The notes beneath the pieces are model-generated. The model saw only the letters and a program-made list of their open reading frames with translations, did no database searches and was not told where the DNA came from. The position numbers and the translations under genes are program-made. Positions 48 through 488 of a stretch of DNA of 11,963 bases are shown here, piece by piece. This stretch comes from Gammaproteobacteria bacterium (GTDB lineage: Bacteria; Pseudomonadota; Gammaproteobacteria; Xanthomonadales; SZUA-5): assembly GCA_030430155.1 (NCBI GenBank), contig JAUIFV010000154.1, positions 1 through 11,963 of the forward strand. The letters run 5' to 3'. Numbering within the stretch: position 1 is the stretch's first letter; every line of letters begins with the position of its first letter.

Positions 48-178
48 CTAGTTCCAGTAGCCAGGAAAGCAACAGCGAAGAGCCTGAGCGCGATCCTGTG
101 GTCGCGGCGAAGGGTCGGTATTCGTCGGCTTCCTGCGCCCCGCGGGATACAAACTGGCTACTGGAACTGGCTACCGGG
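48..178. repeat. Element A, about 130 bp. Its ends carry a 14-bp inverted repeat: GTTCCAGTAGCCAG on the left and CTGGCTACTGGAAC on the right. The 3' end is partly duplicated.
   Basis: The left end at 50-63 reads GTTCCAGTAGCCAG and its exact reverse complement sits at 157-170. The interior is about 75% identical to element B (349-488). Confidence 0.6.
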
Positions 179-194
179 ACTGCTCCTCAGAAAT

Positions 195-342
195 CGTAGG
201 GTGGGCAAAGCGCAGCGTGCCCGCCTCATCAAGTGGCATCGCGAAGGGCGCTTCGAACGTCGCCACCAAACACCGCCTTCAACGCATCCCAGCCACGGCG
301 CGAGATCCGTGTCGGGCACGCTGCGCTTTGCCCAACCTACGA
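195..342. repeat. Element C. A 30-bp inverted repeat matching at 29/30 positions (21-bp core perfect) flanks an 89-bp interior.
   Basis: tcgtagggtgggcaaagcgcagcgtgcccg at 195-224 pairs with cgggcacgctgcgctttgcccaacctacga at 313-342, with one mismatch. A smaller hairpin (cgaag/cttcg) is nested inside. Confidence 0.65.
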
Positions 343-348
343 ACCAGG

Positions 349-488
349 AGCCCAAGTTCCAGTAGCCAGTTCCAGTAGCCAGAAGAGCAGCTGCGAAGAA
401 CCAGAACGTGCCCCCCGCGGGCCGCGACATGGGTCGATTTTCGTAGGAATGTTTATCCGGCGGGAAACATACTGGCCACTGGAACTAG
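349..488. repeat. Element B, a second copy of the element A family. The 5' terminal 13-mer is tandemly duplicated (agttccagtagcc twice).
   Basis: GTTCCAGTAGCC occurs twice at 357-381 and the inverted copy ctggccactggaac at 471-484. The interior aligns to element A, for example at gggtcggtattcgtcgg versus gggtcgattttcgtagg. Confidence 0.6.

Follow-up and report, generated by a model that had tools for sequence, protein, structure and literature searches.

Intergenic hairpin repeats behind a P-type ATPase gene of an uncultured gammaproteobacterium: a REP pair between two copies of an apparently undescribed repeat

The closest described counterparts of the repeats reported here are the repetitive extragenic palindromic sequences (REPs) and the bacterial interspersed mosaic elements (BIMEs). 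The repeats occupy positions 48 to 488 of the window, the term used below for the whole 11,963-nt contig JAUIFV010000154.1 of a gammaproteobacterium (assembly GCA_030430155.1), and form three elements, A, C and B, in that order. REP dimers have spacers of 20-100 bp that vary in sequence and size, the distance between REPs and the 3′ ends of the flanking open reading frames (ORFs) is below 20 bp, REP termini can supply the TAG stop codon, and longer palindromes can enclose GTAG dimers (Di Nocera et al. 2013, PMC3733652). In Stenotrophomonas there are also non-REP repeat families, named TIR, that occur as dimers or clusters and are tied to the genes of HUH tyrosine transposases (TIRYT), forming TIRtrons (PMC3733652). 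Our analysis indicates that block 48-488 is a genuine cluster of intergenic hairpin repeats, in which a classical REP pair, C, is flanked by A and B, both of them copies of a repeat that is numerous in uncultured Lysobacterales and apparently undescribed. It is a familiar kind of bacterial repeat in a new variant, rather than a new kind of system. The reading that we favour, with a probability of roughly 0.6, is that of a BIME-like mosaic of two REP-type repeats, reaching from the stop codon of a P-type ATPase gene to the next promoter.

How does the locus compare with these systems? Like GTAG- and CGTC-tagged REPs and BIMEs (PMC3733652), which are high-copy intergenic inverted dimers with variable spacers, found near ORF 3′ ends and grouped in clusters or mosaics, A and B are inverted pairs with variable spacers that lie at ORF 3′ ends and cluster. 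However, their arms are tandem direct 13-mers without self-complementarity, in which the GTAG tag is not conserved (GTRG), so that the arms are not REP monomers and only the dimer-level behaviour is REP-like. In REPINs (Bertels & Rainey 2011, PMC3116915), as here, inverted units and their spacer fold into one long hairpin and persist vertically with no target-site duplication, and C fits this class as a REP doublet; the differences are that members of a REPIN family share a conserved spacer, whereas those of the A/B family have unrelated cores, and that no REP-associated tyrosine transposase (RAYT) was found in the fetched loci. The TIR repeats of TIRtrons, for example those of Stenotrophomonas maltophilia K279a, are likewise non-REP inverted-repeat units, moderately abundant, present as dimers and clusters and known from the same order, and their mobilisation by an HUH tyrosine transposase has been proposed. 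In our loci, 13-mer arms were not seen around any TIRYT gene. The likeness to TIRs is one of description, since the supplements of PMC3733652 contain none of our motifs and the published TIRs sit in figures. We class A and B with the REP/TIR-type intergenic repeats, among which they form a new variant.

Two other architectures share features with A and B. Integron attC sites have conserved inverted ends around a variable centre and start at or next to the upstream stop codon. Nevertheless, the genes upstream of the present elements are housekeeping genes and not cassettes, the element ends (...CTGGAAC / GTTCCAG...) do not fit RYYYAAC/GTTRRRY, and no integron integrase was found near elements in the fetched loci. 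The foldback elements of Drosophila have inverted arms made of tandem short subrepeats, variable in unit number and loop; being eukaryotic and of kilobase scale, they offer an analogy of form only.

Layout of the block and its three elements

The features of the block and its borders are, in window coordinates (strand given where one applies):

1-39, plus strand: 3′ end of a heavy-metal P-type ATPase gene, stop codon TAG at 37-39
50-64, plus strand: left arm of A, one 13-mer unit AGTTCCAGTAGCC followed by AG; these nucleotides (AGTTCCAGTAGCCAG) pair perfectly with their complement at 154-168, 89 nt apart
65-153: core of A, 89 nt, homologous only to the cores of B and of the orthologous elements in locus L001
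154-181, minus strand: right arm of A, two tandem inverted 13-mer units, the outer one (167-180) degenerate with 2 mismatches
154-382: larger palindrome with 70-nt arms (154-223 / 313-382), 83% complementary
196-225, plus strand: left REP monomer of C; GTAG at 196-199 unpaired, 8-bp stem 200-207 / 218-225, 10-nt loop
226-310: spacer between the REP monomers, with no relative found elsewhere
311-340, minus strand: right REP monomer of C, inverted, with CTAC at 337-340
355-382, plus strand: left arm of B, two perfect tandem 13-mer units followed by AG
383-471: core of B, 89 nt
472-486, minus strand: right arm of B, one inverted unit with 1 mismatch (GGCCAC), then the T-run TAGTTTTTTC
517-544, plus strand: sigma-70-like promoter TTGACA-16-AATAAT (11/12), at the end of the repeat block

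A preliminary description, made from the letters of the contig, had recognised three elements in the block, and all of them were recovered with small corrections to their limits (A 50-181, C 195-342, B 355-486). It had also called the block free of ORFs. Mechanical ORFs do overlap it, at 14-199, 158-430 and 233-520, but none has any support. The gene end at 1-39 was recognised through its orthologue in L001: the first 64 nt of the window match L001 1461-1522 at 89%, that stretch spans the 3′ end of the L001 gene at 1487-4120 (minus strand), and the latter carries E1-E2_ATPase, HMBD and YHS domains. The ATPase stop codon lies 10 nt upstream of the first 13-mer of element A.

A and B share a terminal inverted repeat, as had been proposed, with inverted ends of 15 nt. 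The 13-mer is indeed tandem at the 5′ end of B, where the two units of 355-382 pair with the single unit of 472-486, and, in inverted form, at the 3′ end of A. The two elements are related, although at about 70% overall rather than the 75% first estimated, the arms being identical at 29/30 positions and the cores at 61%. The core of A has 51-54% identity to the cores of the three L001 elements (L001a-c), and no match to it was found among the cores at other loci. A and B are local duplicates of one ancient element, and the left arm of A and the right arm of B, with a single unit each, are reduced versions of the family arm.

When folded as single-stranded DNA and compared with shuffled sequences, all three elements are more stable than expected, with z-scores of -3.2 (A), -3.8 (B) and -6.8 (C). 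In the window, the 14-mer of the family occurs 6 times with at most 2 mismatches, against 0.09 occurrences expected, and none of 200 shuffles reached 6. The true length of the inverted repeat around C is 70 nt, as it takes in the neighbouring 13-mer arms of A and B: the right arm of A plus the left REP is mirrored by the right REP plus the left arm of B.

Element C is a tail-to-tail (REPIN-like) dimer of a canonical GTAG-tagged REP. It shows the two defining features of this class, a short (20-40 nt) imperfect palindrome with a stem-loop and an unpaired GTAG tag at one end. As described before, its arms are 30 nt long and match at 29/30 positions; the left monomer folds at -8.3 kcal/mol and the right one at -7.0 kcal/mol. 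The tags GTAG and CTAC stay unpaired in these folds and both face outward, hence the tail-to-tail arrangement. Stem position 2 is a G-C pair in the left monomer, T-A in the right monomer and C-G in L087, a compensatory pattern. The exact 20-mer core of the unit is present in 4 unrelated IMG/VR contigs of differing composition (L084-L087), in which the whole unit has 0-4 mismatches and the C arm is identical to the REP units at 26-30 of 30 positions. L084 holds a tail-to-tail pair like C with a spacer of only 20 nt, and L085 a solo unit directly after a TAG stop codon. There are two C-type monomers in the 12 kb of the window and none in the 83 loci that carry the 13-mer family, and therefore the C and 13-mer families are independent, though nested here. 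A weak tblastn with an E. coli sequence detected no RAYT, either in the window or in the loci that were fetched.

In L086 (about 9000-9650) and L087 (9280-9640), both with a GC content of 73%, a variant C-type unit (GTAGGCTGGGCAAAGCGCAGCGTGCCCAGC) adjoins hairpin repeat arms of CCAGTNGCCAG type, of which one example, CTTCCAGTCGCCAG, is one mismatch away from the 13-mer. This is a second co-occurrence of a REP and a 13-mer-like repeat, in a much more GC-rich organism.

The 13-mer family at gene 3′ ends

That the elements recur elsewhere, as multi-copy repeats should, was borne out for both types, since besides the four contigs with the C unit the A/B family amounts to about 90 clusters in 83 loci from metagenome-assembled genomes (MAGs) of Lysobacterales and from metagenomes. 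A pattern that required both arms recovered 14 loci in about 7 MAGs, labelled mostly Lysobacterales, Lysobacteraceae or Rhodanobacteraceae and in one case uncultured Gammaproteobacteria only; a 22-nt pattern covering 1.5 units added 69 metagenome contigs, many of them from the same few samples. When every 13-mer with at most 2 mismatches was marked in all loci, the dominant arrangement was one of plus units followed by minus units, ‘++--’ being the commonest, with few solo arms. The usual form is two tandem AGTTCCAGTRGCC units (range 1-7), a core, and inverted 13-mers. The elements are able to fold into a hairpin of 26-34 bp. A search of PLSDB by blastn with the whole block, the consensus arm and the REP unit gave nothing meaningful, a scan of viral contigs for the double 13-mer gave zero matches, and a literature search for the literal sequences gave chance primer matches only. 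Exact-sequence look-ups of the proteins encoded in the window returned no record.

The preliminary description had attributed the 13-mer duplications to replication slippage or to target-site and terminal-repeat behaviour. The number of units per arm (1-7) fits slippage; however, ‘++--’ is the norm of the family, and an analysis of 75 elements at offsets 0-11 showed no enrichment of direct flanking repeats of at least 3 nt. A TA duplication is absent too, T being rare at the position that precedes the unit.

Arms and cores behave very differently. Cores range from 10 to 275 nt with continuous lengths and are unrelated between loci, even within one MAG, and an all-against-all comparison of 87 cores gave matches only in identical contigs of sister samples or in tandem copies at the same locus. 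Arm positions are near-invariant across the family, with a single polymorphic position, R, at which GTAGCC or GTGGCC is read. Across paired arms, the same base stands at R in 31/83 pairs, against about 36 expected, and thus there is no covariation. On the sense strand of the upstream gene, G.U combinations at R number 8 against 16 of A.C, so that G.U is not preferred. The 28-nt arm by itself has a folding energy of dG 0, and 200 of 200 shuffles fold at least as well; in place of the palindrome of a REP monomer there is a direct tandem repeat. Invariance without covariation argues that the constraint acts on the sequence itself and not merely on the maintenance of a stem, and points to sequence-specific recognition of the arms.

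The elements sit at gene 3′ ends, and usually begin 3-10 nt past the stop codon, the typical layout being the stop codon, a few AGCG-like bases and then AGTTCC.... The distance from the stop codon to the first 13-mer is between -2 and 10 nt in 35 of the 77 measurable cases, and at most 26 nt in 48. The stop codons concerned are TAG (28), TGA (27) and TAA (1). Between the convergent genes of L048, L078, L080 and L042, the element is the entire spacer. Upstream and neighbouring genes are housekeeping genes that encode SecA, a class II aminoacyl-tRNA synthetase, XerC, XerD, short-chain dehydrogenases/reductases (SDRs), ABC transporters and the P-type ATPase. No recurrent neighbour gene family and no transposase was found beside elements in about 470 kb of element-bearing loci.

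A 13-mer element lies within 0-6 nt downstream of xerC in two species (L015 3-1117, L051 1490-2855) and of xerD in L056 (56-1138). In genomes so rich in elements this adjacency may be fortuitous, or it may hint at a connection with tyrosine recombinases; as the arms are unlike dif, we keep the Xer link only as a weak lead.

The elements are inherited vertically at the same locus, with conserved arms and drifting cores. The locus of the window is shared with its closest relatives, L001 (Lysobacterales MAG HKST-UBA245, JAGRJL01, in reverse orientation) and L002 (Rhodanobacteraceae MAG SZUA-5, QIMA01), and an element is present in all three. L001 has the same ATPase gene end, all three share the promoter CTTGACATTAAAT..., and L002, whose contig starts inside the element, also shares the downstream slipin gene. 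A, B and L001a-c align as homologues over their full length. Between the window and L001 the arms are identical at 29-30 of 30 positions (97-100%) and the cores at 38-54%. At a second locus, elements of 156, 240 and 73 nt directly follow the stop codon of the same SDR gene in L005, L009 and L061. Elements at the same locus in different species are thus long-lived residents whose arms stay constant while their interiors drift in sequence and length. L055 and L068 offer a filled and an empty site behind the same class II aminoacyl-tRNA synthetase gene; the L055 insertion starts right after the TGA stop codon but carries an extra small ORF, so that its boundary is not clean.

The three element copies of L001 arose through a 242-bp tandem duplication that also copied the gene end. 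This triplication, with a period of 242 bp, covers L001 862-1486, and its unit consists of a 13-mer element and a diverged pseudo-copy of the last ~85 nt of the ATPase gene, that is, gene end plus spacer. This arrangement shows the elements to promote local duplications that carry flanking coding sequence with them.

A probable BIME-like mosaic and its alternatives

What kind of entity would account for these properties? In the BIME-like mosaic that we favour, the 13-mer element is an inverted pair of non-palindromic arms whose interval is free to drift and to change length. The parent element of A and B belongs to a lineage-specific, high-copy family of uncultured Lysobacterales, and C is a GTAG REP dimer placed between the two copies. 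The elements would be co-transcribed with the upstream gene, and the resulting 3′ hairpins may protect, process or pause the transcript, as has been proposed for REPs and BIMEs. Arm sequence would be maintained by a sequence-specific protein, for which the likeliest candidate is a single-copy spreading enzyme, an HUH tyrosine transposase of RAYT/TIRYT type as in REPtrons and TIRtrons, and unit number per arm would change through slippage. The earlier suggestion of a small non-autonomous mobile element was therefore right in kind, there being a dispersed repeat family in relatives, and wrong in detail: the elements are neither slippage scars nor a MITE (miniature inverted-repeat transposable element) with terminal inverted repeats plus target-site duplications, and they have no transposase and no shared core.

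Several observations weigh against the mosaic. No RAYT, TIRYT or other transposase was detected in the element-bearing loci by a weak tblastn with an E. coli sequence, a recurrent-neighbour search and Pfam scans listing the top families only. The 13-mer arm is not palindromic, and so the defining structure of a REP monomer is absent; about 40% of units read GTGG in place of GTAG. Rough gene calls put about 9 of the 52 elements that could be classified between divergent genes. A role at the RNA level would follow from position only, and the wobble comparison on the sense strand (G.U versus A.C) gave no RNA signal. In addition, the copies were counted outside the window's own genome, which is absent from the loci recovered in the scanned collections.

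MITEs of the Correia/NEMIS, ERIC, RUP and Nezha families resemble A and B in being 100-200 bp long, intergenic and hairpin-forming, with terminal inverted repeats, and they have a conserved interior and target-site duplications. As classical MITEs, A and B would have arisen by deletion from an insertion sequence (IS), and a DDE transposase acting in trans would bind their terminal inverted repeats, move them and duplicate the target site. Terminal inverted repeats are present, the elements are small, numerous, intergenic and clustered, and some transposons (IS21, Tn7, Mu) carry several subterminal binding-site repeats at their ends. Nevertheless, this origin is very unlikely, since no target-site duplication of at least 3 nt was seen at any boundary offset in the 75 elements and no TA duplication, and since, in place of a shared interior, the cores are unrelated and of continuous length (10-275 nt), even inside one MAG. 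Moreover, orthologous positions are occupied in different species, and no locus has arms around a transposase-sized ORF; no partner IS with 13-mer ends was found in the 470 kb of loci, whole genomes not having been searched. Even less probable is the idea that the elements are structured non-coding RNAs, either small RNA genes or cis-regulatory RNAs, with a closing stem made of the conserved ends. Their folds are significantly more stable than those of shuffles, and they lie in transcribed 3′ regions; yet an Rfam search of 48-488, which might have reclassified them, returned no family even at E<=1, the cores are conserved neither in sequence nor in length, the stem lacks covariation and the sense strand lacks a G.U preference, and the only sigma-70-like promoter found in 1-1300 is that at 517-544, outside the block. 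A one-off local slippage or duplication, with the arms of C as inverted copies of the ATPase 3′ end, scarcely deserves credence. It draws on the local duplication of A and B, on the triplication with its pseudo-copy of the gene end in L001, and on the match of the C arm to that pseudo-end (17/19, reached by 0/500 shuffles) and to the real gene end (15/18). However, the database-wide BLAST E-value of the match between arm and gene end is only 0.46, and we set this origin of C aside because its match to REP units in unrelated IMG/VR contigs (26-30/30) is far stronger; with 13-mer arms at about 90 other places, the one-off reading is refuted as a full explanation, and local duplication explains only the two copies seen here. 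A shared inverted repeat with a variable interior at many loci also recalls Mpi-type invertons, in which the repeats would serve a global invertase and flank a promoter or terminator that can be flipped. We give this next to no probability, because cores of 10-30 nt are too short to invert, the duplicates at the window locus are in direct orientation, and no invertase is associated, XerC and XerD being the only adjoining recombinases.

A non-mobile origin, although unlikely, has more in its favour. In that case a host protein with a function at gene ends, such as termination, organisation of the nucleoid or recombination, would bind the 13-mer arrays in DNA or RNA; selection would conserve the arrays locus by locus, and recombination would account for their origin or spread. 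This agrees with the near-invariant sequence and the absence of compensatory change at the variable position, with the position kept across species while cores decay, with the tight spacing to stop codons, with the existence in the same genomes of a second family of the same architecture built from other units, (AGGGCCC)n, and with the elements that directly follow xerC (L015, L051) and xerD (L056). It leaves unexplained, however, why the same 26-nt sequence stands at about 90 unrelated loci. Where elements are this frequent, xer genes could adjoin them by chance, the 13-mer motif is to our knowledge unlike dif/Xer sites, and no candidate protein has been identified. Host-protein sites also overlap with the favoured mosaic, as a domesticated transposase would be just such a protein. 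In a bolder form, which we consider quite improbable, the 13-mer and (AGGGCCC)n arrays would be address labels for dedicated sequence-specific proteins at gene 3′ ends genome-wide. This is allowed because the arms are invariant without covariation, lie 3-10 nt from stop codons and are kept at orthologous loci while cores decay. If true, the arrays would constitute a modular, lineage-specific marking of 3′ ends (for termination, mRNA fate or recombination) with one reader per family, and would not be merely selfish REP-like DNA. Readings as a sigma-54 promoter, Chi, a DNA-uptake sequence, a CsrA site or a G-quadruplex were rejected, motif or distribution being unfit.

The 13-mer family combines REP-like behaviour (gene ends, dimers with variable spacers, vertical persistence) with the absence of a REP monomer hairpin, and its arms are conserved as sequence and not as pairing. 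An unusual arm architecture and an unexplained sequence conservation without covariation are what is new within a well-known class. If a reader protein or transposase were found, the known range of REP/RAYT-like associations between host and element would widen, and a reader protein would give a handle on the long-term upkeep of repeats at gene 3′ ends. For annotation purposes, the block should not be called a MITE, a small RNA or an artefact, and two AGTTCCAGTRGCC units, a spacer and two inverted units provide a simple diagnostic for an abundant repeat family of uncultured Lysobacterales. Such elements may also contribute to breaks in MAG assemblies, because several contigs (L002, L014, L021, L029, L034, L043 and L056) start or end at or near them.

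Neighbouring features and a second repeat family

Directly downstream of the block, positions 517-797 hold a conserved small transcription unit that starts with the near-consensus sigma-70 promoter TTGACA-16-AATAAT and is closed by a strong intrinsic terminator (761-790) followed by a T-run. It contains a 36-codon ORF (603-713) with GGAGG about 12 nt upstream. The unit, promoter included, is kept in L001, L002 and L088, and the peptide is poorly conserved. In Rfam, the unit gave only a sub-threshold match to His_leader that is driven by the terminator. The unit may represent a leader peptide/attenuator or else a small RNA.

Further downstream lies the tRNA-like gene whose D-arm junction had been reported to contain the octamer of the terminal repeat. 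CCAGTAGC is indeed present, at 1180-1187, but its CCAG part is not kept in L001, L002 and L088, and GTAGCTCA is a general motif of tRNA D-arms; for both reasons we take the match to be a coincidence. The gene, called as tRNA-Lys(UUU), probably encodes something other than an ordinary tRNA. Its acceptor stem is unpaired, and it directly follows a module that resembles a tRNA 3′ half (T-arm plus CAGGCCCACCA). In relatives, the tandem of module and tRNA-like gene is kept upstream of a slipin (Band 7) gene, the region concerned being at 1123-1248 in the window, 35-205 (minus strand) in L001, 955-1115 in L002, 5385-5560 in L088 and 640-810 in L090. The anticodon loop reads CUUUUAA in the window and L001, CUAAAAA in L002 and CGGUUAA in L088. 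In a more distant relative, a truncated tRNA-like unit comes after a gene called as tRNA-Arg(GCG). The region gives a weak match to the Rfam family YrlA (Y RNA-like), of 22.6 bits against a gathering score of 69.

The second repeat family has arms of tandem 7-mers (GAGGGCT, AGGGCCC, AGGGCTA) that stand opposite their inverted copies, with a variable core in between. Its sites in the window are 2951-3158, between the ends of the slipin and GSDH genes, and 7770-7964, in the cysJ-cysI spacer; elsewhere it occurs at L003 5616-5697, L007 4884-5038, L013 4871-5004, L027 468-555 and others. A 14-mer of this family, with at most 2 mismatches, is present in 16 fetched loci, in several as a ‘+...-’ pair. 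Directly after the slipin stop codon, at 2906-2946, stands a canonical intrinsic terminator (CCCGACGATGG-loop-CCATCGTCGGG, then TTTTCTTGTTT); since it precedes the 7-mer element, the latter is not needed for termination there. The copy between cysJ and cysI also has CCAGTAGC and AAGAGC-like motifs in common with the 13-mer family.

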